DNA of 64,000 nt, taken from assembly GCA_965112155.1 (NCBI GenBank), contig OZ218103.1; one strand, given 5' to 3'. Every line of letters begins with the position of its first letter. Positions within the stretch are counted from its first letter, which is position 1. Shown piece by piece: positions 1 through 60,255 of this stretch. The notes below the pieces were generated by a model, which was not told the DNA's origin, did not search any database, and saw only the letters and a list, made by a program, of their open reading frames with translations. This stretch comes from Podarcis liolepis (taxonomy: Eukaryota). Both the position numbers and the translations under genes were made by a program.

Positions 1-138
1 ACAAGCTAGTAATTTGTGTTCATGGACTTTAATGTACAAAATCTTGAGCCCTAGGCTCAAAGTCATCCTTCTCTGCCACAGTCAGTCACCCTCCTGCTAA
101 TACCAGTTCTGATCCCCATCCTTCCATCTCCAAGGACA

Positions 139-211
139 TGCTTTTATGTACGGTGTCAGCATGTGGTGACAGAAAGTTTACATCACATGCTTCATTGAGT
201 GCAGAAAAGCA
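139..211 (-). promoter_or_regulatory. SECIS element in the 3'UTR of the selenoprotein P paralogue
   Basis: Minus strand reads TGCTTTTCTGCAC TCA ATGA-A GCATGTGATGT AAA CTTTCTGT CACCACATGC T-GA-C ACC GTACATAAAAGCA. This gives an AUGA/GA core (195-192, 157-156), helix II with GCATGTG/CACATGC, apical AAA (179-177) 11 nt above the core, and a lower helix I. Confidence 0.9.
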
Positions 212-701
212 GGAAATGCAAAAATGGGGTCAAAATTGGCTTCTCAAGAAGCTGATTACTATAGCAGCTCTGTGTTCCTGAGGAAAACAATATGGCTTCC
301 TTAGGCAGTCCTCACCACAGAAATGGGGTGTATCTAAAAATCCATCTGAGCCCAAGAGGAACACCACCTTAAGGCTTGGTGGAACAAAACTGGTGGATAT
401 GAGGTTAACTGGGAGATTCAAAATGAGGATAGAAGTCTCATTGTGGACAAGCAGTTAAACTTTCCAATCACATATATGACACAACAAAAGTTTTTGTTGT
501 GTCCTCTGCTATCTGTTGAGAGACCTTGAATGATTAGGGAGTGGAACATTCACTTCCCTTCCCCTGCTGAAAACTGAGCCATCATATTTCTTCCTTCTGA
601 TGCATGTAAGTTTGCCCCCTGGCTCTTCTTAAAAGCTTGCTTAGTGCTAAGTATGCTTATGGCTAACAGTTGGGTGTTGCATACATTGAAGTTTAAATGC
701 T

Positions 702-3700
702 TTATGGGGATTCCCTTGTTTGATGCTTCTGTGAGCGATTCTGAGAGTGGAGAACTGGCTGGTGTGTACTGCTCAAACCCAAGGCTTTATGGTTGCCGAC
801 TCCTCCATGATGTGAATAGTGATGGGCTATGTGCTTGGTGTTAGGTGCTTCTTGGCTTGGCTCATCGTGATGGTACCTGGGTTCTTCCAGGTGCTTCTCT
901 TTGTGTCCAGATGCCTCAGTTGTCGTCACGTTAGTACTTGCTGTCTTATTCACCTGTGAAGGTAATGAAAGATTCTAGTATACAGTGGTACCTCACAAGA
1001 CGAATGCCTCGGAAGATGAAAAACGCGCAAGACGAAAGAGTTTTTCATTTTTTGAGTTGCTTCGCAAGACGAATTTCCCTATGGGCTTGCTTCGCAAGAC
1101 AAAAACGTCTTGCAAGTTTGTTTCCTTTTTCTTAAAACCGCTTGAAGAGGTGCAGTTGCAACTTGACCGTGCTTCGCAAGACGAAAAATCCGCAAGATGA
1201 AAAAACTCGCAGAACAAATTAATTTCGTCTTGCGAGGCACCACTGTACAGATGGGCTTAGGGTGAAGACAGAAACACATTTTTAAAAGTGAAGATGGATG
1301 TATATATCTGAAGTGATCTGCATTCAGCCCTTTTTGACAAAATATGTAAACTTCCAAAATCAACTGAGCTCAGAACAACTGCTACTTTCTGTTTTCAGGA
1401 GAAATTGGCTGTGAAGAATAGTGATTGCCTGGCAGTCACTTAAAAAGTGGTTTTAAAGAATGTGTAAAATAGAAGTTTAAATGAGTAGCCGTGCTGGATG
1501 TTTAGGCATAGAAATGGTTTTTAAAAGCTCAAAGTTTGAGAGGCAAAAAGCTGCACAGGAGTTTAAGCCAAGTATATATCTCTCTCAAAAGACCAGGGAG
1601 GGAAGAAGGTTTGATTTCTCCAGATCAGAAAAACCTGCACCGACTCCTGGAAGGAGATCTGTTTGACTTCACTCTCGGTATGGTCGAAATGGCTTAAAAG
1701 GTATTTATAATATTTTGCTGCATTGGCTATCGGGGCAGCAAAAAACTAAAATAGGTAATACATCAGGGCCCTCCCGCAATCCCACCTTGAGGAATGAACT
1801 TTCAGATCACTGATGGGGCAGGAAGTGACACCACAGGACAAGACAGCAGTTATTATTTCTTCTGTCCAAGGACCAATATGCTCCCATTCATTGGGAACAG
1901 GAAGCACTTCAACCTGACAAATTAAGGGTGTTAATTTATTTTTTTCAATAACTGAGGGCAGACAATGGCTACTGGGTGAGGCTCAAGCAGTACATGATAG
2001 CAGCAGATCCAGGTCTTGCCCCACCATGTGCAAAACAGGAAGGTGGGGTTGACTTTAGAGAAAAGGGGTGCCTGGGTGAGGGGAACCAAACTTTTCCTGC
2101 ACTTGATGCCACACAGCTTCTGTTCCAAAGTGTCTTTCTCCAAGTCAATCTCACTTTTAGTATCTGGACTCAACTGGGGAGAAAAGCACTTGGGGGAGGG
2201 CAGTGTGAGAAGCTGAAAGTGGGGGGGGGGCTTAGCATGTCCTCCCACCTGGGTTCTCCTGGACCCCTCCACGCAACACTATCTGTAACTGCGGCAGACC
2301 TGGTGTCTCCATCTGCAATTTGCTTCTGAGATTTTTATTTCAAGATGGTTTACTTCCTGCTTTGTGGTATCTCAACATCCTTTCTCCTTGCTTGGCTGTA
2401 GTGGCCCAATATAATAAAACCCTCCCTTCCACCTTCTCCTCCCACATCCCTGCTGTAAGACCGATTTGATCAGAAACCTAGAATTCCCAGGCAGAAGTTC
2501 AGGATGGGCAAATGAGGAAATGTCTGGCTTAAATAAAATAGTTGAAAAGGAAGTTGATGAGGGGATTCAAGTCCCTACCTCCTGGCTGCTGTTAGAGGGG
2601 TACCAGGAACAATTGCCACAGTAGTCTTTGCTGTGTGTGTACCGCACGGCTGCTTCAACATAGGGCAAGTGCAGAAAACTGTATGGCAGCTGGATGTGGA
2701 AAGCCAGCCTGCTGCACCTGCAAAGCCCGAGAGCCATGAAACAGATGGACATAAAGTTAGTGTCAGGAGAGTCTGTAATCCACTAATTTACACTGGAAAT
2801 GAATCTACCCTGGCCTGAAGAATCTGGTTTTCCTCACCAACAGTTGTGAGACATGATGGTAAAGAGAAACACTTACATCATGGTATGTCCTTTCTTTCCA
2901 GATGTGTCCTCAAACAGACTTTTTGATAATGTATTCAAGAATCCTGAATTCCATATATCTTACTTTCCTTCCTTCTGCCCAGGCCTGCAGACCCCCATTG
3001 GCCTCCCATCAGCAGCTGCCTACGGAGCACCCTCTTCTGCCCCCGCTAGTGCTGCTGATGGGATCCCTGCTGGTGGCAGCAGGGACTTTCGGCAGCCAAG
3101 GAAGGAGCTGGACTGAGCCGCCCTGCAGTTCACTGGATCCTGTGATGGTCCCACTGCCAGAACTGGGCTTCTTCCAGGCTCAATTGCTGCACCAGCTCCA
3201 AGCTGGCTCAGTGATCTGCCTTCCCTCCCTTCTGCCCCGGCTGCTATGCACAGCAGTGGCCCTGACTCTCCAAAACCCTATCAGTCTGGGTGGGGAGTTA
3301 GAATTGCTCCCTTAAGCACTGACCTGTCATAGATCAGGAAGTCATCCTTGTCCCCATCTAGAATTTGCCAGACGTCAGGCTCCAGAATCTGCTGCTGGTA
3401 AACAGGGACTCCCTCTGGGGCATGCCGTTTGAGCTCCCAGTACATGGCCCTGGAGAAAGGAGTCTTCTCATTCACAATCATGAAGCTGACATTGGTCACT
3501 CCTTCAAGTGACAGCTTCCTCTGCAAGCTGCCAAGGCTGGTGGGTAGGAAGAACAAGCGACGTTTAGGAAATGAGGTGCACAGATATAGGTTCCAGCCCT
3601 TGCCCTCTGCACATACCATGTGGGATATGAGCCTGCACTGCTGGACGGAGGCCCCTTCATTTATCAGTTCACTGGACTTGCCATTACAGCAGTTCCTGCT

Positions 3701-4392
3701 ACATAGATCCGGCAATAAGTTACATGATACATATTATACTTGAGCTGTAATTCACCAGGAAAATTGCATCCACCATCTATATGCGTGTTATATCTGGCCT
3801 GCTGTACCCCAGGCCTCAATTTTTGATTGCTGAACTGGAGCTTATAAACAATCAGTTCAGTTCTGTGTTTCCTGGTAGAAAGCTTAGGGACAAAGATGTG
3901 ACCTTTGTCCCTAAGCTGTGATATTGCCACTGAACACCAGATACAGGGTTCCAACACATATCTGACTTTCTAGTCACATCCAGACCATCTTTTTAAAGCA
4001 TGTGACTTTCCCCAAAGCATTATGGGAACTGTGATTTACCCCCTCAGAGAGCTATAGTTCCCAGCACTCTTAAACTGCGGTTCCCATGACTCTTTGGGGA
4101 AAGCCATGTGCGTCAAATGTATGGTGTGGCTGCGACCTAACAGCCCCTGACTCAGGCAACCTTCTCTATGAACTCACCTGGCGGCCTGCTTGAGACAGAA
4201 CTGTCAGCTGGCTTTCAACAGTGCCACCACTGTCACTTGGCCCTCCATCCCAGCCATGGGGGCCACCCCATTGATCTTCCAGAGTGGTGCAGGCTGGCAT
4301 ATTCGGGTCCTGTTCTCAGCCACGTCTGCCAGCGTAGCAGCAATTGCCAGGAGCAGCAGCAAGGTTGTTGTGGCTAGGGCTGAATAGCCCAT
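702..4392 (-). CDS. SELENOP2: Selenoprotein P paralogue (SELENOP2 / SelPb type), 272 aa, one selenocysteine; 4 coding exons: 4178-4392, 3324-3536, 2579-2717, 702-953
   Basis: Spliced translation: signal peptide MGYSALATTTLLLLLAIAATLA, then ...GQVTVVALLKAS-U-QFCLKQAAS|LGSLQRKL...DVWQILDGDKDDFLIYDR|CSRLAFHIQLPYSFLHLPYVEAAV...CGNC...|His-rich tail, TAA at 702-704. This matches the selenoprotein P N-terminal domain (UxxC, DDFLIYDRC, CGNC). All junctions are GT-AG, phases 2/2/0, total 819 nt. An acceptor at 4413-4414 implies an unlocated 5' non-coding exon. Confidence 0.93.
983..1245. mobile_element. Non-autonomous Tc1/mariner (Tigger/pogo-like) MITE
   Basis: TIRs cagtggtacctc...gaggcaccactg flanked by TA on both sides; internal repeats of gcaagacgaa; near-identical family member in opposite orientation at 36068-36363. 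Confidence 0.85.
3975..4135. mobile_element. Palindromic MITE-like element in a SELENOP2 intron
   Basis: Imperfect inverted arms (cacatccagaccat...ctttccccaaag...gggaact / gttccc...ctttgggggaaag...atggtgtggctgcg); boundaries approximate. Confidence 0.5.
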
Positions 4393-11630: not shown

Positions 11631-11743
11631 GGAAGGGACCACTAGGGTCATCTAGCCCAACCCCCTCTGTAATGCAGGGTACTTTTGCCTAATGTGAGAC
11701 TCGAACTCATGACCCCAAGATTATTGTGCTCTACCGACTGAGC
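11631..11743 (-). mobile_element. Short tRNA-derived SINE with CR1-like tail
   Basis: Minus strand AGCTCAGTCGGTAGAGC (A box) ... GAGTTCGAGTC (B box) followed by ...GGGTTGGGCTAGATGACCCTAGTGGTCCCTTCC. Confidence 0.65.
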
Positions 11744-11841
11744 TTCCCCACCCCACAACAACTGAGCTGGCTTTCTTTTCTGTTTCTGTAGGTCTAGCAC
11801 CAAAGGTTGTGTTACCATTGACCACCCTTTCAAACTGCAGA

Positions 11842-13044
11842 ATGCCTGGTCTTCTGAACCGGATGTGCCACATTGGGTTCCACGTCCCTGAGGGGCAACA
11901 GCTGGCCAGCAACTTGGTGCGCCAGTTTGGATTCGAGCTGTTTGCTGCACGGGTGGCAGAATGGAGCAGGCAGCTGGCCTTCCGGAGAGGGGATGCCGTT
12001 TTTCTCGTCAATGAAAGGCTGAAGCCTGCCAAGAGAGACGCTCCACCTGTGCCATCTTCAGGCTGCCGCAAGGATAAAGGAATTCTGTACGACGTGGACC
12101 TAGAATATGCCGTCAGTACAGCCTCCAACATTTGCTTTGAGGCAGAAGATGTACCTGGCATCTCCCAAAGCCTACAGGAACGAGGATGCCAGATCCTCAT
12201 CCCTCCCACAGCTGTGGAAGATGAAAATGGCCACGTCACTTATTCAGTAGTGGGATCCATCATAGGCAACGTCAGCCACACACTACTTGACAGATCTCGG
12301 TACAGCGGACCGTTCCTACCTGGTTTCCACATGGTGGAGGGTGCTCCCAAGGTCCAGGTGGGTGGCCAGGTGACACATTTTGATCATATCACCTATGCTT
12401 GCCCCCAAGGTAGCTCGCAAGCTGTGTTGGACTGGTACAAGAACTGTTTGGGATTCCAGCGTTTCCCCATCCACCAGCAAGACAATGGTACTGATGGCTA
12501 TACAATCCAGGGTGCTGGTATGGGTCTTCGTCTTACTGCCATGCAGTCCAATGGAAGCGATCCGACTCTGCTTTGCAATGACTGTAAAATTATTCTAGCT
12601 GAGTCTCTGTCAGATCAAAAGAAGAACCAGGTGGATACTTTCTTGGAGCAGCACGGTGGATCGGGCATCCAACACGTGGCACTCTACACCACAGGTATTA
12701 TAGGAGCCGCTGCGGCCATGGCCAGATCTGGCGCAAACTTTTTCAAGCCCCCCTTATCCTACTACAGTGAGAAAAGGAAGGTGGAGGAGATAAGGCAAGC
12801 TGGGCAAAATCTTCAGCTCCTGAAGGACCACGGCATCCTTCTGGACGCTGGTGTAGGAGGCAGCGGTAGCTCTGGAGGCCTTTGTGAGAAGCAATACCTC
12901 ATGCAGATCTTCACAAAGCCTCTCTTTACAGAGGATACTTTCTTCCTGGAGCTTATAGAGCGATGTGGGGCCACAGGTTTTGGTGAGGGAAACATTCGTG
13001 CTCTCTGGCAGTCTGTACAAAACTATATGGACCAGCAAGTTTGA
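11842..13044 (+). CDS. HPDL: 4-hydroxyphenylpyruvate dioxygenase-like protein, 400 aa, single coding exon
   Basis: ATG at 11842. MCHIGFHVPEGQQLASNLVRQFGF and GDAVFLVNE match the HPDL N-terminus. Iron ligands in FDHITY, IQHVAL, FLELIE; C-terminal GFGEGNIRALWQSV. Adjacent to MUTYH as in other vertebrates. Confidence 0.96.
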   Translation: MPGLLNRMCHIGFHVPEGQQLASNLVRQFGFELFAARVAEWSRQLAFRRGDAVFLVNERLKPAKRDAPPVPSSGCRKDKGILYDVDLEYAVSTASNICFEAEDVPGISQSLQERGCQILIPPTAVEDENGHVTYSVVGSIIGNVSHTLLDRSRYSGPFLPGFHMVEGAPKVQVGGQVTHFDHITYACPQGSSQAVLDWYKNCLGFQRFPIHQQDNGTDGYTIQGAGMGLRLTAMQSNGSDPTLLCNDCKIILAESLSDQKKNQVDTFLEQHGGSGIQHVALYTTGIIGAAAAMARSGANFFKPPLSYYSEKRKVEEIRQAGQNLQLLKDHGILLDAGVGGSGSSGGLCEKQYLMQIFTKPLFTEDTFFLELIERCGATGFGEGNIRALWQSVQNYMDQQV

Positions 13045-21500: not shown

Positions 21501-24500
21501 CCTCTGTCACTCTCCACAGTGCCTAGCTCTTCCTCTTGAGCCAACGAACATTTAGTTAGGACTACCATTGATTTGAATGGAATTTTCTTACATGTGAAGG
21601 ACTGCATTATTCACCCCAACTTCTCTGGGTGTGTGTACAGCTCCTGGTTTGCTGATTGAACTGCTAATTCACTATATTTTTGACCTTAAGAGTTCAAACT
21701 TAGCAAGGGGAAACCAACTGCAAGTCCACTATATGCAATTAGGGACTGGCTGTGAACAGTTTAGATTTTGCCAGGATGTGTTGTCTCCAGTTTGGATATC
21801 TGATGGGGAAGAAGGAAAAAAATACTTTTATCTTCCAAAAGCTATTGTCCTTTCCTGACTCTCAGGTCCTAAAGCTATGCTTGCACCATCCCAACCCCAT
21901 TCCTTCCCTTACCAGAGTCTGTCAGCAACAGATGCATTGGCGGGGTCAGCACCAATGGCTCGTGTACGGCACAAGACCCGAATTACGTTCCCATCCACCA
22001 CACCGGTCACCTGGATGCATTGGACAAAACATCAACCCAGTCGTTACTGTACTTGTGACAACTTCTGCTCCAGCCTCCATTAAGGGCTGCTGACAGAGCT
22101 ACTGAAGAGCCCAACTAGGCCACAGAGGGCCTTCTGCCTGCATCAAATTCAATCTGTGAATCCATGGAAAGTTGAGATTACATAGTGGTTAGGATATCAA
22201 GTATGGTTCAGGAAGTCTTTGGTTTGAAGCAGAGTGCACAGAGGTACAAGTCATTGTTTAGTGGCTTAGATAGTAATGTCTAGTGACCATATTAAATTCT
22301 GTATTAATATTTGTTTCTCTTGCCAGATACCACCTCTGTTTGGTTTGTGTTCATATTGTACAAAAGGAAGTTACTCTTTAGGACTGATGACCAAGACTAG
22401 CCACAATTTAGTCTTTCTTCCAGTCACAGGGTTAGAAAGGTACTGATACTCTTTCTTTACACTTATACAGATTATGAAGTCATGCCATACAGAGCAGAAA
22501 TCTAAATTACACACCACTTCCTTGGCTGAGATCTTCCTATTTGTTCCTACTTGTTCTAGCGCTAACAGTGAGGGAATTAGTAGCCAATTCACTGTTTTTA
22601 GGGGCATCAAGGGAAACACAGGAGTGAACATCAGCTGCAAAGGGAAAGGAGAGAAGAAGAAGAAGAAGAAGAAGAAGAAGAAGAAGAAGAAGAAGAAGAA
22701 GAAGAAGGGGAGGAGTTTGGATTTGATATCCCGCCTTTCACTCCCCTTCAGGAGTCTCAAAGCGGTTAACATTCTCCTTTCCCTTTCTCCCCCACAACAA
22801 ACACTCTGTGAGGTGAGTGGGGCTGAGAGACTTCAAAGAAGTGTGACTGGCCCAAGGTCACCCAGCAGCTGCATGTAGAGGAGCGGAGACGTGAACCCGG
22901 TTCCCCAGATTACGAGACTACCGCTCTTAACCACTACACCACACTGGCTCTCAGTGTCTAGCCCTCTAGCTTGACTAAGGACTTAGAATCCCAAAGCCAG
23001 GTTGGCTAATATTCCTTTGTGCAGATTCCTAAAGCAAATCTGCCCACTCAGACTGCAACCTCATTACCTGACCAAACGCTATGGATGCAATAGCTCCTGC
23101 AGTGTACTTTCCAACTCCCGGCAACTGCTTCTGCAGCTCTTCTGCTGTCCTGGGCATATGTCCTTCCATCTGTGACACCAACTGCAAAATAAACCAGTTG
23201 AAGCAACACAGGGACATTGTCACTCAAAAGCACCACCTCTGGTGGTTCTTAGGCACGCTGTTAAAACTTCCAACATCCCTTTAAGGTGTCATGATCCTGG
23301 AGTCAGATTCCCCTTCTTCAGGGGATGAGGTTGAGGACTCTGAAGCAGGAGGGGAAAAGGAATGCAGGGCCAGCCCTGGAAGTACTTCTATCTGATGAGC
23401 CTGTGGGGGCAGTGCTCCTCCAGGCCAAAGGATGTGGCACTGCTGTCCTTGGAAGAAGCTATTGCAGAACCTTCCTAGCCCTCTGCTCTACTGCAATAGA
23501 AGTAGGTTGGCTTTCACTGAAGAAGGACTTGCCATTGCAGATGGGGCTAACAATTGGGATGCCCTTGCTGCCACTATATAGGGTTCAGTGACTGAAGCAG
23601 TATCAGAGCTTTGTGTTTCTATAGCACAACCTGAGCAGCACATTAAGAAGAAGGTGGGCTTTCTGGTGATAAGATATCATGAGACTAAAATACTGCCCAT
23701 TGCCTCTTGGAAGGAAGGGTGGGATACAAACATTAGGGGATTTGGGATATACATTTCCTACAAACTATACCCTCAGTTTTAGGAAGCTACTCATCTTAGG
23801 ACCTCAAAAGTAAACTATTTGGGGTTCCCACCTTGCCATCTAATAACACTTTGCTATTCCTACCTGAACTCCCAATTAGACTAGTTAGTACAATAGCTAC
23901 AGTAGCTAGTTATTTTGCACCTGGTTCTTTCCTAAGTGGCTATTAGAAAATCTTTCTTTCTGTAAGCACAGGACATAAAGGAAACTATCTTCTTGCAAAA
24001 ATGCCTTGTGTCTTGACCCACTGTCTATAGAGTACCTTATGTGCACCTTCCTGGAGTCGCTTCCCTCGGGAATAGTAGCCAAGCCCTGCCCATAGCTCAT
24101 TCACCTCCTATTTCCAAATAGAGTTAGAAAAAAATATTAGACCAGACCAATAATTTTTGCTTTTGCTTAGTTTATTAATTTTTTGCTATTTCATTTTTGT
24201 GGATTTTTGGGGGTATTTCAGTATTTTTTAAAAAACATGTATTTAAATCTTTTTTTAAAAGGGGGGGGGGGAGAGCAAAGCTGCATGTTCCATTCAAATA
24301 TTCATGCATGAACACACACAAAATATTGCATTCTCATTCTTACCTCTAGCGAAGCCTGAGCCAGGTCCTGCAAGGTTGGCCATTTCTGTATCAAAAAGGA
24401 AAACGGGGATGTGTTTACAAGGTCTCCAAAGCACAATGGATACAAGATCCAGAATTCAGGAGCTAATGCACAACAAAGCATGCCACAGAGAGAAAAGGAT

Positions 24501-28161: not shown

Positions 28162-28604
28162 GTAAGAGGTCTTTCGAAAGCACCTTCCGGGGGGGGTATT
28201 GTGCTCAGCGGTTTCTTGTGCAGACGATGTGCATTCTCCTAAACGAGTTAGTGGCCAGGGACCAGGAAATGGTGGTGGAGCGGAGGTTTAAACTTGATCT
28301 CACGTATAACGTGCACGTTATGGATCATGTACTGATGACTTTTTACTGTTCCCGTTCTAGTTCTGGTTTGAGCTTTAACGAGATGAAGCATTTACTATAC
28401 TGGGGCTCTTGGGTTTTTTGCCATATAAAGCAGCGGATCCTGTTGTCTATTTTTTTCTGAGGTGTTGTTATTTGATATATGCATGGAGCAATCTGTGGGT
28501 TGGGGTTTTTTAAATTAGTCATTGGTATCCCCAAAGCAAAATTACCCATTGGATTCTAAAAGTTATGCATGTCTAATCTCTTGTGTCCCAACAGCTGCAT
28601 AAGG

Positions 28605-31600
28605 ATGACTTCCTTGAAAGTGCCAGTCATCGATGTCCAGAATGATAATTTCAAGGAGCTCTGGCCATCCATGCTCTTGGCCATCAAAACATCTAGCTTT
28701 ATAGCTATTGACACGGTGGGTAGAGTTGCCCTTCTTTGTGATTTCTCAAAAAGGGTAGGGGCAGGGACTGTAACTTTGTTGGTAATTGGGTTGCTGTCTT
28801 TGCTAGGGAAAGCTGACACCATTTTCTTTAATTTTTCCATTGGTCTATCTACCTATTCTTTATACTGCTTTCCAGGGTTTCAGACAGGAGTTTTCCATCT
28901 TTGCATGGGAGACACCAGGGATTAAACCTTAAACCTTGTACATGAAAGACTGCAACACTGAGCTACAACTTACTGGTATTTTACATAACTTATTCTACCA
29001 TGGAGTGGAAATCTAATTGTTATCTTTGTTCATAGGAGCTTAGTGGGCTTGGAACAAGGAAGAGTTTATTGAATCAGTAAGTAAAGTGCTGCTTCTGTGG
29101 GAGCACGATTTTCTCATTCTTGTTGTTCTGAATTATTAGGTCCTTGAGTATGGACAGCAGTGTGGAGTGTCTGCTGATACTTTGTTTCCCCTGACTCAAT
29201 ATCAGACACTAGTTGAATGGACCTATTGGGATTCACAGTGGAAGCAGTTCATTGACTCTGTGTGGGTGTGGATGGCTTAAGATGGGCTTGCCCATTTGGA
29301 GTAATCAGTTCTTTGAGGGCAGGAAATATGCAAGCTGTGGGGAACAGGCCCACATGCTATTAATATGCTTCGAAATTCAGGCTGGTCTTGATCTTGAATG
29401 GGAAGGTGAAATTTGTCATGTCAATAGGGGAGCTATGGTTCAGTGGTCTAAATTTCCTTCTAAGCTGCCTGAGGCTTCTCCCCACAGGTGTATTGAAGAA
29501 CGATACAAATCTGTTTGCAGTGCTGCCAGAACACGCTCCATTTTGTCTTTAGGAATTGCTTGTTTCAAACATCTTCCTGATAAGGTATAGTGCTCATTGT
29601 CTGGCTTTCACCCTAATTCTACTGCTGAGTTAAGAATGTGTTGCTTATAAGAGGATGGTATTTTGAAGGTTCAGTCTTCAATGCATAAAGGGATGCACAA
29701 AGTGACCAGTATTGATTTTAGACAATAAAGGAAGTAGTTGTTGATTTCTACGATGTTACTGTTTGCACTTTTTCTGTGCTGCTCTCAATTTCTTTGAACT
29801 GGCCTGTATTTGCAGTCAGAGAACACGTATCTCTCCCAGATCTACAACCTGACCCTGCTCTGTATGGAGGATTATATCATTGAACCACAGTCAGTTCAGT
29901 TCCTGGTGCAACATGGCTTTGACTTCAACAAGCAGTATTCTCAGGGCATTCCTTATCACAGAGGCAATGACAAGGTATGGGGACTCTTTACTGTAAGGTA
30001 TAAGTGAGGTGAGACCACAATGAGAAAGTAACTGGTTTCTTTCTTAATACCTGCTTCTTTTGCTAATCAAAATTATCCACATGTATTTAAAAAAAATACT
30101 TTTACTGTATTAACATCAATTAACAACCCATAATGCATTTCACACTTCAGTGCCATGGGGCTGAATTGATGCTGCACCAACATGGCCACCACCTAGTCAA
30201 AGTAGTTCTGTGAAGCTTCTGTGGACGAGTCAGTCTGCTAGCAGCCACAGAAAGGAAGCACCTGGGATTTGCCTGTTGCTAAAACAAGCTTTGGAGCCAG
30301 GCAGAGCTGGTTTCACCATTGAGCTGGAGGAGAACTGCCCTCACAGAAATAAGCCTGGGAACACATACCAGGGTCTGAGCTGAAGGGGTGGGAAATGTCC
30401 TGCACTTTCATCTGACAGTTCAGGTAGATGAATAAAGCACCATCTCTGCCTAGAGTACAGGAGAGAGTGGTGGTGGGCATCCTGCCTTTTCCAGGCTGTA
30501 CCTCAGTGAAAACTAGGTGGTGGTGGTTCTGCCCTAGGACCTGGGTCATGAATCCATAAGCAGTGGCAGAATTTGGCTTGTAGACCTGTACCATCAAAAC
30601 AGGTGAAGGAAACTCCAGGGGATCAATGCCACTCTCTTTTGCATTTACCTCTGCTGCCTTTGCCTACATTGACCGCCCAACACTTCTGAGGCTCATCTTC
30701 ATCCAGGCTGTTCCCATATCAGAGAAACTAGTGCAGGCTTTGGAAATGAGGCCAGCTAACCTTATCCCCTCTTTGCTCTCTCACAGGGAAATGAAAACCA
30801 CAGCCAGACTGTCCGTACTTTTTTCCTGGAACTGATCCGAGCCAAGAAGCCCCTCATTCTGCACAATGGCCTAATTGATTTGGTTTTCCTGTACCAGTGC
30901 TTTTATGCTCACCTTCCTGACAATTTGGGCACCTTCACTGCTGATCTTTCAGAGATGTTCCCAGCTGGAATCTATGACACCAAGTATGCTTCTGAGTTTG
31001 AGGCACGTTTTGTGGCTTCTTACCTGGAGTATGCCTACAAGAAATGGTAGGTATCTCTTGCCAGGTCAAGCTGTAAGCACCCTGACAAGGATTCTTGGGC
31101 TGAGATCCATCGTAGCACAAGTGGACATTTGCCTGATCACATAAGGCTTTTCCTCCCCCCCCTCCCCCCCTTCACCTCCCCATGTACTCCCAAAATCTAC
31201 TCTGGAGATTTGAGGGACCAGGTTTTAGGAGCACATGGGTGTGGGAGGTAGAATAGAAATTGGAAGTTCCATTGCACAGGCTGATTTCTGTTGGGTAAGC
31301 AGGCATACATCATTGAATGCTGCTCCTGGGCTTGAGTAAGGAGAACACAACTGCTGGGTCCAAGGCTGCTGCTCTTCTATTTTTACCGGAAAAGGGTCTT
31401 ATTTGGGTATGAATGTGTAGGGTGGAGGACAAGAAGTATGAATACCATATCAAGTTAGTGACTTTGTTATTTTCCATATAGGTTATTCTATTTATGTGCA
31501 ATTTGGGCAAATACTGTGATTCAGCTAAATCTTAATTGTGATTCAATTAAACCCCAGGCTCCACTACAAACTCATAACTCCACATGCATGTACTTGCCTG

Positions 31601-34345
31601 CCATTTGTCTCAGGTTGTTCTCTTGCTACAGCTTTCAGCAGAAATTCTTTATAAGTTTAAATTATTATTACTAAATTTGTATTCTGCCCTATACCTGTAG
31701 ATCTTAGAGTGGTTCACAACATAAAATTACAATATTAAAGACACAAAATACATGATAGAAATATGAACAAAAACAAACCAATAATTGCCCCTTCCACAAC
31801 CCATTTTAAAGGGCATCGGGTGTCATTCGGCCAAAGGCCTGGTTGAAGAGAAAAGTTTTCAACTGGTGCCTAAAGATGTATAATGAAAATGAGTTGCATT
31901 TCTTTGTACAGCTTAGGAGACTGAAATCTCCTATTTGATACTAGAGCCTGGATTCTGAGTAAAGTATTTTACTTAATTCCAGTCCACAAAATTTTGACTG
32001 GCCTTGGCAGTTAGCCATAATTTATGGTCTCCACAAACTCTACTCCTTTGGCACATGCAGAGGACCCAAGAGATGAAGGGTCAGTCGCATTCCATGCTGT
32101 GCCTTTAAAACACTAAAATACAGCAAGAAGGATTCTCACTCAGTTTTCAGTATCTTCAAAATGTGGCACGAAGCAAAAGTTCTTTGAAAAAGAGACTGCA
32201 ACAGTCTCGTCTGCCTAATGCAGTAGAAGATGGCTCCTGTCTTAAGTTCTCTGTGGCAGCAGAATGAAGGGGTAGGGTTTTTCATGTTGTCCTTGGCTAC
32301 TAGCAGAAGAAACGTAGAAATGTGTGGAACTGACTAAACAACTCCTCAGGTTTTCTCTTCCCTTTTCTCCATTTCTCCACTCCCTGATTCTAATAATCAA
32401 ATGAGATGTTTGCCTTCTGCTTAGAGAAAAGTACTAGTTTGGGAAGATGCTCATACCCTGTTAGGGTGTTCCAGGTATGTGGCAGTCAGGGGAACAAGCA
32501 GCTGTGCTGATAGCATTTTCATGTGTCTGTGCTTCTCTTCTATGTATCTTTTATATTCTTATTTCTGCTTTAGCTCATTTTTCTACATGCAGGGGGCTTT
32601 CCTGTGAGTACATAGAGGAGCCTGTGCTGAAGGGCAGTTGATCTCCTTGCTCTGACACAGCCTCTGTTCCAGGTTCTAATGCTATTCTTGCCTTCCAGCA
32701 AGCGAGAAAACTACAGGTTGAAGAATTCAGAAAAGCAGCACCTCAGCATAGAGTTCTGCAACTATCCAGACAGCATAGCTTCCTACATCGATTATCGCTT
32801 CTGTTCCCTATCAGATGCCAGCCAGTCTGGGCTTGACCCTGCAAACAAAGTCACCATCTGTCAGACGTTTTCTGTAAGTATTACGTCTCTCTACCTTCTA
32901 TCTTGAAAGTTTGTCAAATAGTAAATTGTAACTGGTTCATTCAGTGTGGTGGATATTCTCAGATAGGGACTATGAGGGCAAGCTGTCTAGGATGAGAGAC
33001 AGGCTCTTGGGCTGGATGTGTGTGTGGCAGTGGGAGGCAAATGCTTATGCTGTTATTATGGTCAATTTTAAAGCATGGTACCTCTTTCTGCAGCTTTCTG
33101 ATAAAAATGGAGAGGTGCTAACTTTTAATAATGAGGGTATCTGGGAGCTTACTAGGGAACACAAGAGACCTGCTGGGTCAGGCTAAAGGTCCATTTAGTC
33201 CAGTATATTTTCCCAACAGTGGCTCAGCCCAGAAGCCTGCAAGTAATACATGAGGTTTGGATGATCCAGAATAGTCTTTTAATATTGCTATTTTCCGGTT
33301 AATCAGCATGGCACAATCTCACAAATGTGATAAATATCCAGAAGTGAATGTTGAAAGTTGCTCTAGGGCAGCGTTTCTCAAATTTGGGTCCCCAGCTGTT
33401 GGACTACAACTCCCATCATCCCTGACCACTGGTTGTGCTAGCTAGGGATGATGGGAGCTGTAGTCCAACAACAGCTGGCGACCCAAGTTTGAGAATCACT
33501 GCTGTAGGGTATCTAAGATCCAATGATATTTTCTCAAGTGTGCTAATGATTCTCACTCTCCCCTGCAGGCCTATGGCTGGTGCCCAGATGGATTGAAGTG
33601 TTCACAGTCTCACAACATTGACCTAATAATTAATGAAGATGAGAACCACAAAGAGGACAAGCGGAAGAAAAGGAAGCAGAAGTGGAAGCACCGGAAGAAT
33701 TTTGTAGAGCCCTCAAAGGAACCTGTGTTGAGAAGCCCTGAGAAGGAAGGAGAGGCGGCTTGCAATATGGAAGACGGTCCCCCATCCAAGCAGTCCTGTT
33801 TAAGCAACATGGTTGCTCCTACTGTAGATTCTGCAGGCACAGAAACTGTATCCAGTAATGAGGAGAGTTCTATGGATGTAGAACGAGAACTAGGCTCTGA
33901 CACGGCAACTGATACCAAGATGGATGAGGAACAAGCCAGTGCCACAGACAATGAGGGCATCACTTTATCACCATCCAAAGATGGGCCACAACAAAGGGCA
34001 GCAGGGACTGAAGGATCAGGACCAGAAGTCCAGATAGAGTGTGCTTCTGTAGTGACGGCTTTGTCTGGCACCCAGAACCCAGTGGCACCAGTGCCTGGCT
34101 GTTCAGAGGGTGGTATTCACCGGGCTGGCTTTGATGCCTTCATGACAGGTTACATTATTGCCTACGTCCATATGCTCAAAAACGATGAACACAAAGACTC
34201 AAGGGAAGGGCCTTGGTTGCCGGACTGCCATAACAAAGTGTACCTCAGTGGGAAGTCTGTCCCCCTTCAGATAGTGAAAAGTTTGTTTTCTAAATCCTCC
34301 AAAGCTCACAGCCAGAAGATGAAATTGGCTTGGGCTAGTAAGTAG
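28605..34345 (+). CDS. TOE1: Target of EGR1 protein 1 (DEDD deadenylase, Caf1z), 539 aa; coding exons 28605-28715, 29036-29076, 29488-29584, 29816-29974, 30787-31046, 32699-32873, 33569-34345
   Basis: [17 protein letters not shown], catalytic AIDT|[31 protein letters not shown]3H finger CQTFS|[15 protein letters not shown], basic [27 protein letters not shown] junctions in phase (1620 nt). Confidence 0.96.
33369..33501. mobile_element. Palindromic hAT-type MITE in the last TOE1 intron
   Basis: Almost fully self-complementary (cagcgtttctcaaa...ggactacaactcccatcatccct / agggatgatgggagctgtagtcc...tttgagaatcactg); flanks ctctaggg / ctgtaggg (7 of 8 match, TSD). Confidence 0.8.
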
Positions 34346-41117: not shown

Positions 41118-44100
41118 TTAAATGTCACATTTTGATTGCTCGCATACTGATGCTGGTGCATCTGAAGATGGCAGAGAAACAAGATTTGAGATGTCACTAT
41201 CCACTGCCTCAAAAAGAGAGGCTTCTCTGCCAGACTGTGGGGGAGGGTTAACACTGAACAATAGTTTGGAAGACTCCGACCTAGTGGAAGGCATGTTCCT
41301 TTGAGTTTCATCTTCAACTTCCATATCTTCAGAGGAGATGCAGCTCATAAACATCTCTGAGGATCTACTATCTGAATGGTCTAAATTATGTGCCAGGATA
41401 CCATCTACATTCTGGGCAACTTGCCCCCTGGGCTTTCCGAGTTCTACTTCCTTAGCAAAATTTACAGGGCAGTACCCATTTTCATCTTGGGGCTCCAGTC
41501 CATCAGAATAGTCCATTTCTTCCTCCTGCAGAAGAGGAGAAGGTGAGTCCTGCCTATGATGTTTGGCCTGAAAAGGAGGAATCTCAGACACTCCATATTG
41601 ACTGCTGCTCAGTAGCTTCTGCCGCACTTCAGCCCCCAGCTGGCTGGGATCACATCTACTAATGGTTGAAGAGAGATCCCCAAATCTATTATCTTTATGC
41701 ACAAATTCAAGAGATCCTGGAAGTGATCTGCTCCGTCTTACAGGAAGGAAAGAGGAGTCCAGCCAGTCAGTGTTAGAAGTCTGCCGGAATGGGGTCTGGT
41801 TCATCTTTAGACATCCTTCTGCCTCCGGGGAGTGCAAGTCAAATACAAGTGATATCACAGATTTGCTTGGCAAATCAAAAAATTTGACCTTTCCACCTTT
41901 CAAGTCTTCCCTAGAATTGAAAGGGTTGACTTTCCGGTTTGCCCCTTTGCTTGGTGTATAGTAGGGGTCCTGAACATTTATCTTGCGGCAAGGTTTGCGA
42001 GAGAATATGTCTGACTGACTGCGCGATAGCCAGATATTGCGCCGTGGACGGGGTGATTTAGGTGGAATCTTGTCATCCAGTGAACTTAGCCTTTTTACTC
42101 CTTGTCCCCTCTCCAGTAAACCTAGAATGGAGAGAAAAAGAAAATCAGACTTAAAGGATGTTGCTAGCGACAGGATTAGAATGATACAGAAAAAGATCAC
42201 CAGTGTACATATGACATTCTGTTCAGTCTTCCACAAAACCCCACACCTTGGAAATGTATGGACTCACATGGAATTCTGTATCAATTGAGATCCAAATAAT
42301 TTTTTATTCAGCTAAGTAGGAAGTAAAGGTCTAGTATAGAATATTAATACTAATAAATAGTGTTTAAAGTAAACTAAGGATTGATATGATCCCTAACTCC
42401 TCATGTTCATCCAAAATCTTTTCTCTAAGTCAACATTTTACTGCTTTGAGCTTCATTCTGCATAGACCATTAGAAGGGAATGAAGAACCAATTGTTAAAG
42501 ACTGAAGACAGAATAACAAGTCTTATCTCTATTACATGTGGGCAAGTATTTTCAAAGGCCAACCATAACAGGAGATATATCCTTCCCATTCTATTATTGT
42601 GCTCTGTGCACTAGCAGATTGTTCCCAAGAACAAGAGTTGAGGAGGACAGCCACCATTTCATGAGACTATAAGACAAATTCATGCTACTAAAGGCTGATG
42701 TTTTCAACGTGAGGTTTCCTTAGAGCAAAGACACCCCTGTGCTTTGAAAGGTGAAGGCAAACAATAATACCTCCCTCTGGAAGTGAAGAGGTTATATTCC
42801 ACATCAGCTTTGAAACAGCACATAGTCCAGTGCAGAAACTATGACACACAGCAGTTGGGCTTGGGGGTAAAATCTGTTAAATACATGTAAATAATGCATC
42901 ACTAAATAGAGCAACTGCAAATATTAAGGTCAAGTGGAAAGTGGCTGTCTCAGCCATGTAACAGCTTCCTCTCAAAACTGAGAACAGGTACCCAAATTTT
43001 GGCTGCAATTTCTCTAAGCACACCAGGGGGCAGTGTGATGCTTTACAAGAAGGTACAATCCAATCCTAACACCAACACTTCCTATGTTTTATTATGTTAA
43101 ACATACATATTTCTGGGTACATTAAAGGATTTGCAATTAACCAGCACTGATACAGAAACCTTTTGAACAAGTTTCAGGGTCCACATGTATCTCCCAGATA
43201 TGAAAGCGCTTCCTCATTTGCACAATGCCAAGTACAGCTCTCCTCACATGTCTCCAGTGCCCTTAATATTGCAAAGAATGAAGAACCCAGTGTACTCTGG
43301 ATCAAGCTGACAGCGGCTATCGCTGTTCAAATGAAGGCACTTTTCCATACAGTCCTCAATCCTTATTGTGTGGGGTAATGACACCTATGGCCCAAAACAA
43401 TGTATCCAGTCCCTAGATTCATTTCACTCGCAGTTTCCACAAACCAACTTGCAGCAGTAGTCTTCAAAGCTGCAAGAATTCAAACTGATCTGATATAGTC
43501 TCTAGGAAATACTTTGCAATAAGTCAGCCTCTGGTTAAAGGTCAGACATCCCAAGCCAACAAGGAAGAGCTTAATTTGGATGAAGTTCCTGGAATCTGTT
43601 TCACAAGGGCACAGCAGACACCAGGAGCCTTGTTTGCTTCTAAAATTAGATATTTAAACTCCAAAAGTGCAAGCTACAGAAAAAGCTACTAACAGCTAGT
43701 AGTTACTTATGTAACAGTTTCCTTTTGAGGTCTATATAGTTAGAATTTGGGTACCTACGGAGCAGGGCTTTCGAAAAAGTGGGAAATAAGAATTAAAAAG
43801 ATGAACGATAAAAGTTTACATCATATTCAAATAAAATGTTCCCTTTGAAAAATAAAATAAGAGGACTAATGTCAAGCAACAAAGCATTTGTGAGAACTGG
43901 TCTTCATCTGTCATAGCCTATGATGCATAAAAAATGGGTGTCTCAGAAATTATATTAGGGTATGGGGAAAAGTTTGTTCTCAAAGTGGCACCTCCTCTGA
44001 TCCTGCAAGGATTTCTTAAACCAAACAAAGGATTATTTTACTCCACTAGTCAAGTTGACCCTTAATGACATTTAAGCAGAGCAATTCTAATTCACATTTA

Positions 44101-60127: not shown

Positions 60128-60255
60128 TCTACACTGACTGGCAGTAGCACTCTAGGATTTCAGACAGGGGCATTCCCAGTCCTACCCGGAAATGCCAGGG
60201 ATTGAACTTGGGACCTTCTGCATGCAAAGCAGATGCTCTGTCACTGAGCTATGGC
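60128..60255 (-). mobile_element. tRNA-derived SINE head (also at about 58595-58675 and 53700-53810)
   Basis: Minus strand CCATAGCTCAGTGACAGAGCATCTGCTTTGCATGCAGAAGGTCCCAAGTTCAATCCCTGGCAT with A/B boxes; continues into non-tRNA body. Confidence 0.65.

Follow-up and report, generated by a model that had tools for sequence, protein, structure and literature searches.

The window, by which we mean the whole stretch of 64,000 nucleotides of Podarcis liolepis DNA analysed here, carries on its minus strand a SELENOP2 gene of four coding exons, which together form a 272-codon frame with a single TGA at codon 63 within the motif U-Q-F-C (Table 1). The frame stays open for 209 codons after UGA63, and this codon occupies the selenocysteine (Sec) position of the family, the same codon in the same context being found in four salmonid SelPb cDNAs. 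A Pfam scan of the last coding exon returned no meaningful match. In the genome, which also contains a tRNA-Sec with anticodon TCA (79.6 bits), the final 960 bases of the window have a single matching place.

Table 1. Positions of the SELENOP2 gene and of its 3'UTR hairpin in the window
Feature	Position	Strand	Evidence and detail
First coding exon	4178..4392	-	ATG; hydrophobic signal-peptide-like start; U63-Q-F-C66; PF04592 E 1.2e-12
In-frame TGA, predicted selenocysteine codon 63	4204..4206	-	26 nt before exon end; 1136 nt before SECIS core on spliced mRNA
Second coding exon	3324..3536	-	SelP_N positions 47-116; PF04592 E 1.7e-24
Third coding exon	2579..2717	-	SelP_N positions 118-159; PF04592 E 1.9e-14
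Last coding exon, His-rich tail	702..953	-	83 codons; stop TAA 704-702; no further UGA
3'UTR of SELENOP2	1..701, running beyond window edge	-	Stranded reads, hexamers; 3' end inferred
Predicted SECIS element, whole	139..211	-	Sequence; published pattern match; fold in UTR; RF00031 16.4 bits at 145-205
Helix I, 5' arm	199..211	-	Pairs with 151-139 at 11 of 13 positions
U198-C197-A196, between helix I and core		-	U at 198 lies 3 nt before AUGA
5' core AUGAA (unpaired A and UGAN of quartet)	191..195	-	Sequence
Helix II, 5' arm	181..190	-	7 perfect pairs, A.C mismatch, 2 pairs; first pair G190-C159
Apical loop, 12 nt	169..180	-	AAA at 179-177; optional 2-bp helix 3 (177-169, 176-170; probability about 0.3)
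Helix II, 3' arm	159..168	-	Sequence, UTR fold
3' core UGAC	155..158	-	GA invariant; C replaces consensus W
Helix I, 3' arm	139..151	-	Sequence, UTR fold

The gene displays the features of SELENOP2/SelPb, namely a SelP_N domain with a U-x-x-C site and a single Sec, followed by a His-rich tail without a Sec-rich C-terminal region, which is the domain plan described for SelPb (PMC2397514). The 70 residues encoded by the second coding exon, which lies after the UGA, share 100% identity with a Podarcis muralis protein and 83-100% with other squamates. A search with this exon gave 69 candidates, 51 of which are relatives; wherever a name specifies the paralog, it is Pb or P2. Identity to fish relatives is 61-76%, against 49% (33/67) to the SELENOP1 of the same genome. 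The other SelP_N gene of the genome, on C12, contains 1 + 12 in-frame TGA codons and two SECIS elements and is therefore SELENOP1. In contrast, multiple Sec codons and paired SECIS elements are absent from the window gene, which has one TGA and one SECIS on its transcript. Judged by identity on one 70-aa exon the window gene is nearer to SelPb orthologues than to SELENOP1, and on these sequence grounds it is classed as SELENOP2/SelPb. The first-pass annotation had matched a single SECIS to a single UGA and contrasted this with the two elements of canonical SELENOP1. The pairing is borne out, as this is a single-UGA gene of the selenoprotein P family with one SECIS on its transcript, and the difference is one of paralogy, since one UGA and one SECIS are the published norm of SelPb, which is reported in reptiles and whose SECIS is of type 2 (PMC5133445).

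In all six squamate database proteins aligned with the gene (P0001, P0003-P0007) the residues flanking the Sec codon are missing or garbled, and none of these proteins follows the gene past the third coding exon, where each either stops or takes a different course. Faults of this kind are the usual mis-annotation of selenoproteins. At the start of the third coding exon (2716-2705, minus strand) the residues C-S-R-L are found here and in Varanus, Salvator and Anolis, and C-K/R-K-L in two snakes. Turtles, alligator and fish have C-G at this position, making this a squamate-specific change at a conserved glycine.

The last SELENOP2 intron holds at 979-1249 a TA-flanked element of 271 nt with terminal inverted repeats of about 27 nt, which we take to be a miniature transposon of mariner type and on which RNA reads from both strands pile up with many differences. 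Weak microRNA matches in an Rfam scan of 1-3000 are attributed to this inverted-repeat element. Across the window 4 of 38 frames had Pfam matches. A single-exon frame of 443 aa at 11713-13044 (plus strand) matches glyoxalase/dioxygenase families, while three frames at 28560-34345 (plus strand) show weak CAF1 ribonuclease matches; presumably these correspond to HPDL and TOE1 of human 1p34. On the minus strand, a 381-aa open frame at 41118-42263, with no Pfam match at E <= 0.001, is probably the long last exon of a neighbouring gene, and a partial tRNA match at 60195-60251 (38.4 bits, model positions 8-63 of 71) appears to be a tRNA pseudogene or the head of a tRNA-derived repeat. SelPb is reported to be missing from a conserved locus on human chromosome 1 (PMC6301783).

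Structure and fold of the 3'UTR hairpin

The hairpin at 211-139 (minus strand) lies downstream of the TAA stop codon, which precedes its core by 506 nt and helix I by 490 nt, in agreement with the distance of about 500 nt given by the first-pass annotation. The parts proposed there, a quartet, an upper helix with a perfect 7-bp portion, an AAA 11 nt above the core and a lower helix, are all present. In the quartet consensus UGAN/KGAW only UGA/GA is invariable (PMC2647825). This invariant core, with an unpaired purine on its 5' side, is formed by A195-UGA-A191 and U158-GA-C155. At the two positions of the 3' side that are of majority rather than invariant character, K is U, as in the consensus, and W is replaced by C. 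In helix II, positions 190-184 pair with 165-159 in seven perfect base pairs, followed by the A183.C166 mismatch and the pairs 182-167 and 181-168, giving 9 pairs over 10 positions. When the whole putative 3'UTR of 982 nt is folded, the 9 pairs of helix II have probabilities of 0.90-1.0 and the 11 pairs of helix I of 0.84-0.98, both helices being intact with 20 pairs in total, and they flank the core within the published limits of length and energy, applied by hand. The three adenines at 179-177, 11 nt above the core, are unpaired with probabilities of 0.90, 0.69 and 0.70. Helix 3 amounts to at most two marginal pairs, the energy being -8.8 kcal/mol with or without it. Folded alone, a stretch of 91 nt reaches -19.7 kcal/mol (z -1.29), and since 21 of 200 shuffles are equally stable, stability alone is uninformative for this hairpin.

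To call the element canonical, as the first-pass annotation did, overstates it. The UGA/GA core, the 5' A, the AAA at 11 nt, the two helices, the loop length and a G at +1 paired with a pyrimidine are shared with the eukaryotic SECIS consensus, whereas the C at the W position (UGAC and not KGAW), the marginal helix 3 and an Rfam score of 16.4 bits, below the cut-off of 35, depart from it.

Among relatives, the arrangement is that of published SelPb genes, in which a selenoprotein P paralog with one UGA carries one element in its 3'UTR. SelPb SECIS elements of lamprey, fugu, alligator and opossum are presented in section 4.4 and supplement S3 of PMC5133445, one SECIS is reported for the salmonid SelPb genes (PMC6301783), and the cloned turkey SEPP2 includes a 3'UTR SECIS (PMC4466519), located about 240 nt from the stop, compared with 506 nt in the lizard. 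Compared by eye with four salmonid SelPb cDNAs (PMC6301783 supplement 6), the lizard element displays the same layout of AUGAAG, 10 nt and AAAC, with G as the first base of helix II and an 11-nt spacer; the two SelPb1 copies also share UCUGCA just upstream. In contrast, the apex after AAA spans 7 nt in the lizard and 11 nt in the salmonids, and the 3' core ends in C in the lizard and in U in the salmonids. The lizard element may likewise differ from the published type 2 form of SelPb SECIS elements, its two or fewer helix 3 pairs having a probability of about 0.3 and an energy equal to that of the open loop.

SELENOP1 of the same genome lies at L010:1090-6770 (G000:C12, about 46.124-46.130 Mb, plus strand), with helix 3 in SECIS 1 and an open loop in SECIS 2, as published for tetrapods (PMC5133445). 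Its SECIS 1 (L010:5997-6060) and SECIS 2 (about L010:6690-6765) have the same architecture as the SELENOP2 element, with energies in one filter of -18.3 and -17.2 kcal/mol, compared with -17.1 kcal/mol for SELENOP2. SECIS 2 resembles the SELENOP2 element further in its open loop and in having no Rfam match. SELENOP1 differs in that two elements serve 13 UGAs, and also in the GUGA core and 3-bp helix 3 of SECIS 1. An alignment of the three SelP elements was out of register and gave no useful sequence correspondence.

Motif and covariance-model searches

The SECISearch PatScan pattern from the SECISearch3 supplement (PMC3753652) was run on the sequence in our own implementation. It matches the hairpin, with an upper stem of -8.9 kcal/mol, and this is the sole match in the 982-nt UTR. 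When the UTR was dinucleotide-shuffled 5000 times, 450 of the shuffled sequences contained a match; in 281 of them the upper stem reached -4 kcal/mol or lower, and in 56 it reached -8.9 kcal/mol or lower. Across 188,000 bases (the window, 10 kb downstream and 20 kb around SELENOP1, both strands) there are 10 matches, 9 of which have a dG of -4 kcal/mol or lower. These comprise the SELENOP2 element, the two SELENOP1 elements and a further six, of which four lie inside the window. The 10 kb downstream contain one match (L002:6255), on the opposite strand. The further matches in the window, at 21510 (-), 42267 (-), 56547 (-) and 59516 (+), have no known selenoprotein frame upstream and none passes our fold filter; they are taken as background. 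As the pattern matches at these four other places too, the gene context and not the motif alone decides the SECIS call, and the motif by itself is suggestive.

Three filters of our own were also applied. The first, an ungapped pattern, found the SELENOP2 element and missed both SELENOP1 elements; the second did the reverse, rejecting the SELENOP2 element because one A of its AAA is paired in the lowest-energy fold; the third finds all three. In this third version, whose rule was altered after the second had missed the SELENOP2 element, the AA is constrained to stay unpaired, which costs 0.1 kcal/mol. It gives 5 matches in 206,386 bases, namely the SELENOP2 element, both SELENOP1 elements, L012 and L014, and among 5000 shuffles of the UTR it finds any match in 47 and an equally stable one in 6. 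The claim that only one SECIS is visible in the window thus depends on the search: it holds under our stricter filters, in which the SELENOP2 element is the one match in 128 kb (the window, both strands), and fails under the published pattern with dG of -4 kcal/mol or lower, which gives 5 matches in the 64-kb window, the SELENOP2 element included. Applied by hand, the published SECISearch3 filter retains the element (loop 12 nt, stem 9-11, no bending, -8.8 kcal/mol), and the published grading yields 3.0 of 4 points without the Covels term, corresponding to grade B at least; grade A is defined as a score of at least 2.5 together with a Covels score of at least 15 (PMC3753652). Among metagenome contigs 595 pattern matches were obtained in a search for orthologous SELENOP2 loci, none of which was confirmed.

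By score the SELENOP2 element is not a member of the Rfam family SECIS_1. In a 131-base scan RF00031 aligns with the hairpin over all 64 model positions, with the core and the AAA in register, and scores 16.4 bits against the gathering cut-off of 35, with an E of 0.78 over 4227 families; division by the number of families gives a single-family E of about 2e-4. No SECIS family appeared at E <= 10 in a scan of 1-3000, nor did any SECIS match at gathering level in 74 kb (the window and 10 kb downstream). The covariance-model match, which the first-pass annotation had proposed as a check, was therefore not reached at the Rfam cut-off. SECIS 1 of SELENOP1 scores 40.3 bits on RF00031, whereas SECIS 2 gives no RF00031 match at E <= 10 in an equal 131-base scan. 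As the model misses SECIS 2 as well, the Rfam test is insensitive here and does not refute the SELENOP2 element. A genome-wide RF00031 search, in which 129 of 26,793 candidates were scored and the 40-bit SELENOP1 element was missed, is uninformative. Well-formed SECIS-like candidates lie elsewhere in the genome at L012:1560 (-) and L014:1510 (+), with 32.6 and 27.2 bits, both below the Rfam cut-off; these are two of the three top RF00031 matches elsewhere in the genome. Identity of the hairpin as a microRNA or C/D snoRNA was rejected, since the matches to mir-280 (18.2 bits), mir-218 (16.1 bits) and SNORD60 (14.7 bits) lie far below the cut-offs of 70, 62 and 42 and reflect a chance likeness to a hairpin with UGA/GA boxes.

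Transcription and probable 3' end of SELENOP2

Raw reads from four RNA runs labelled as the same species, 6-13% of each run, were aligned to a target made of the gene and 2 kb downstream. Two of the three coding splice junctions are directly observed, both with CT..AC ends on the plus strand: that from 2579 to 953 in 4, 6, 4 and 4 reads and that from 3324 to 2717 in 0, 1, 6 and 5 reads of the four runs. The first coding junction is absent among the junctions listed from these runs, and the junction between the first and second coding exons is a predicted one, placed from GT-AG and frame. In the UTR bins of the three bulk runs first mates are on the plus strand only (X22, X23) or nearly only (X24), as expected for minus-strand RNA in most stranded libraries. 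The RNA runs across the element, the bin holding it having a depth of 4.8, 2.1, 4.1 and 4.0 in the four runs, and coverage continues two bins further. In X22-X24 the depth is 3.2-5.6 in the bins upstream, 2.1-4.8 at the element and 2.6-6.7 downstream. Stranded reads cover L003 1603-2937, and none falls in 1336-1602.

The sequence between the stop codon and the hairpin contains no AATAAA or ATTAAA. The first such hexamers past the element are an ATTAAA at 33-28, which is read through, an ATTAAA at L003 1778 and an AATAAA at L003 1738. The last of these, at G000:C6:51583738 and 263 nt before window base 1, is probably the 3' end signal of SELENOP2, because its position fits the end of coverage. 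Polyadenylation upstream of position 211 on the minus strand, which according to the first-pass annotation would speak against the element, is thus not indicated: no such hexamer precedes the hairpin and stranded reads run past it. No single read joining the coding region to the hairpin was seen in the four runs at this low depth. The hairpin nevertheless lies in the 3'UTR of a gene whose reading frame carries a Sec-position UGA, at less than 3000 nt from the coding sequence, and is very probably part of the SELENOP2 mRNA. Among the read differences listed, none falls in the 73-nt element and 12 in the rest of the UTR; as about 0.9 would be expected in the element, this gives no evidence on its constraint. 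At window position 413 (L003:2413), upstream of the hairpin, reads of all four runs carry a 4-base insertion relative to the assembly, a polymorphism in the 3'UTR.

Predicted recoding of UGA63 and alternative readings

We hold with high confidence that the hairpin at 211-139 is a SECIS in the transcribed 3'UTR of SELENOP2, and that it likely directs Sec insertion at the sole in-frame UGA, codon 63. As in known SECIS elements, the core with its tandem G.A pairs would form a kink-turn bound by SECISBP2. In Sec insertion eEFSec is recruited together with Sec-tRNA, and SECISBP2 would here bring both to the ribosome paused at the UGA, with the element recoding UGA63 across 1136 nt of spliced mRNA. 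The product would be a secreted thioredoxin-fold protein of 272 residues with a U-x-x-C site and a His-rich tail, lacking the Sec-rich transport tail of SELENOP1. Tandem G.A pairs are described as a putative kink-turn needed for SBP2 binding, and the core and the AAA as required for recoding (PMC2761289, PMC3753652).

How efficiently the element works is a separate matter. Among human SECIS elements, a U three bases before AUGA together with a G-C pair at +2 is reported in 100% of those classed as weak, 25% of the moderate and 12.5% of the strong ones (PMC2761289), and the SELENOP2 element carries both features. Its recoding efficiency may accordingly be modest. Inspected by eye, the SelPb elements of salmonids also have this U and this G, and the weak signature may thus be a family trait.

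The same features would also suit a genuine but decayed SECIS, with negligible recoding, most ribosomes stopping at UGA63 and the gene heading for loss as in placental mammals, a reading that we regard as improbable. The low Rfam score of 16.4 bits, the non-consensus C of the 3' core, the vestigial helix 3, the weak signature and the low depth of RNA reads are all compatible with decay, and SELENOP2, a single-Sec gene, is reported as lost in Eutheria and converted to Cys in frogs and sharks (bioRxiv 10.1101/2025.05.29.656587; PMC3316567). However, the frame is intact past the UGA and the exon tested is strongly conserved among squamates; both helices retain their 20 pairs, only UGA/GA is invariant in the core, and the salmonid elements share the U and the G. 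Weak human SECIS elements still recode (PMC2761289), and, as turkey SEPP2 is reported as liver-specific (PMC4466519), the low depth may reflect the tissue of the RNA runs.

Less probable still is a chance hairpin, with the working SECIS elsewhere or the UGA read through by another route. In its favour, 281 of 5000 shuffles contain a pattern match with an upper stem of -4 kcal/mol or lower, four further matches lie in the window and the folding z-score is -1.29, but the hairpin is the sole match in the UTR, the lone match in the 10 kb downstream is on the opposite strand, and only 6 to 56 of 5000 shuffles equal its quality; moreover, a Sec-position UGA needs a SECIS and the transcript offers this one alone. 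It is just as improbable that the SECIS works while many transcripts omit it by earlier polyadenylation, as reported for SECIS 2 of human SELENOP1, for although weak hexamer variants occur upstream (CATAAA 706, TTTAAA 697, AAGAAA 592) and such variants are reported for SELENOP1 (PMC5133445), AATAAA and ATTAAA are absent between stop and SECIS, depth does not fall across the element and read ends do not pile up among those listed, at a depth too low for a minor site to show.

The marginal helix 3, the UGAC core and the weak signature suggest a further possibility, which we advance as speculative and rather unlikely. Through the loss of most of helix 3 the lacertid SELENOP2 SECIS might have moved from the type 2 form published for SelPb towards type 1 and become a low-efficiency element low in the selenium hierarchy. 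It could then be a living intermediate on the way to what happened in placentals, frogs and sharks, where the gene was lost or its Sec replaced by Cys. Such a shift would parallel the known shift of the tetrapod SELENOP1 SECIS 2.

A single SECIS in reptile SELENOP2 is already published, and the arrangement is ordinary for fish, birds and reptiles. In the part of the literature covered, no publication on a Podarcis SELENOP2 SECIS was found, and the supplements of the 2025 bioRxiv preprint may include the gene. The element therefore carries little weight as a discovery, its value being practical, for the annotation of SELENOP2: the six squamate database proteins aligned here mishandle the region of the Sec codon and the Rfam model misses the element, with the result that the gene is truncated or mis-spliced by automated pipelines. 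Should the change at the apex and the weak signature be general in lizards, they would offer a small natural test of SECIS form against recoding efficiency.
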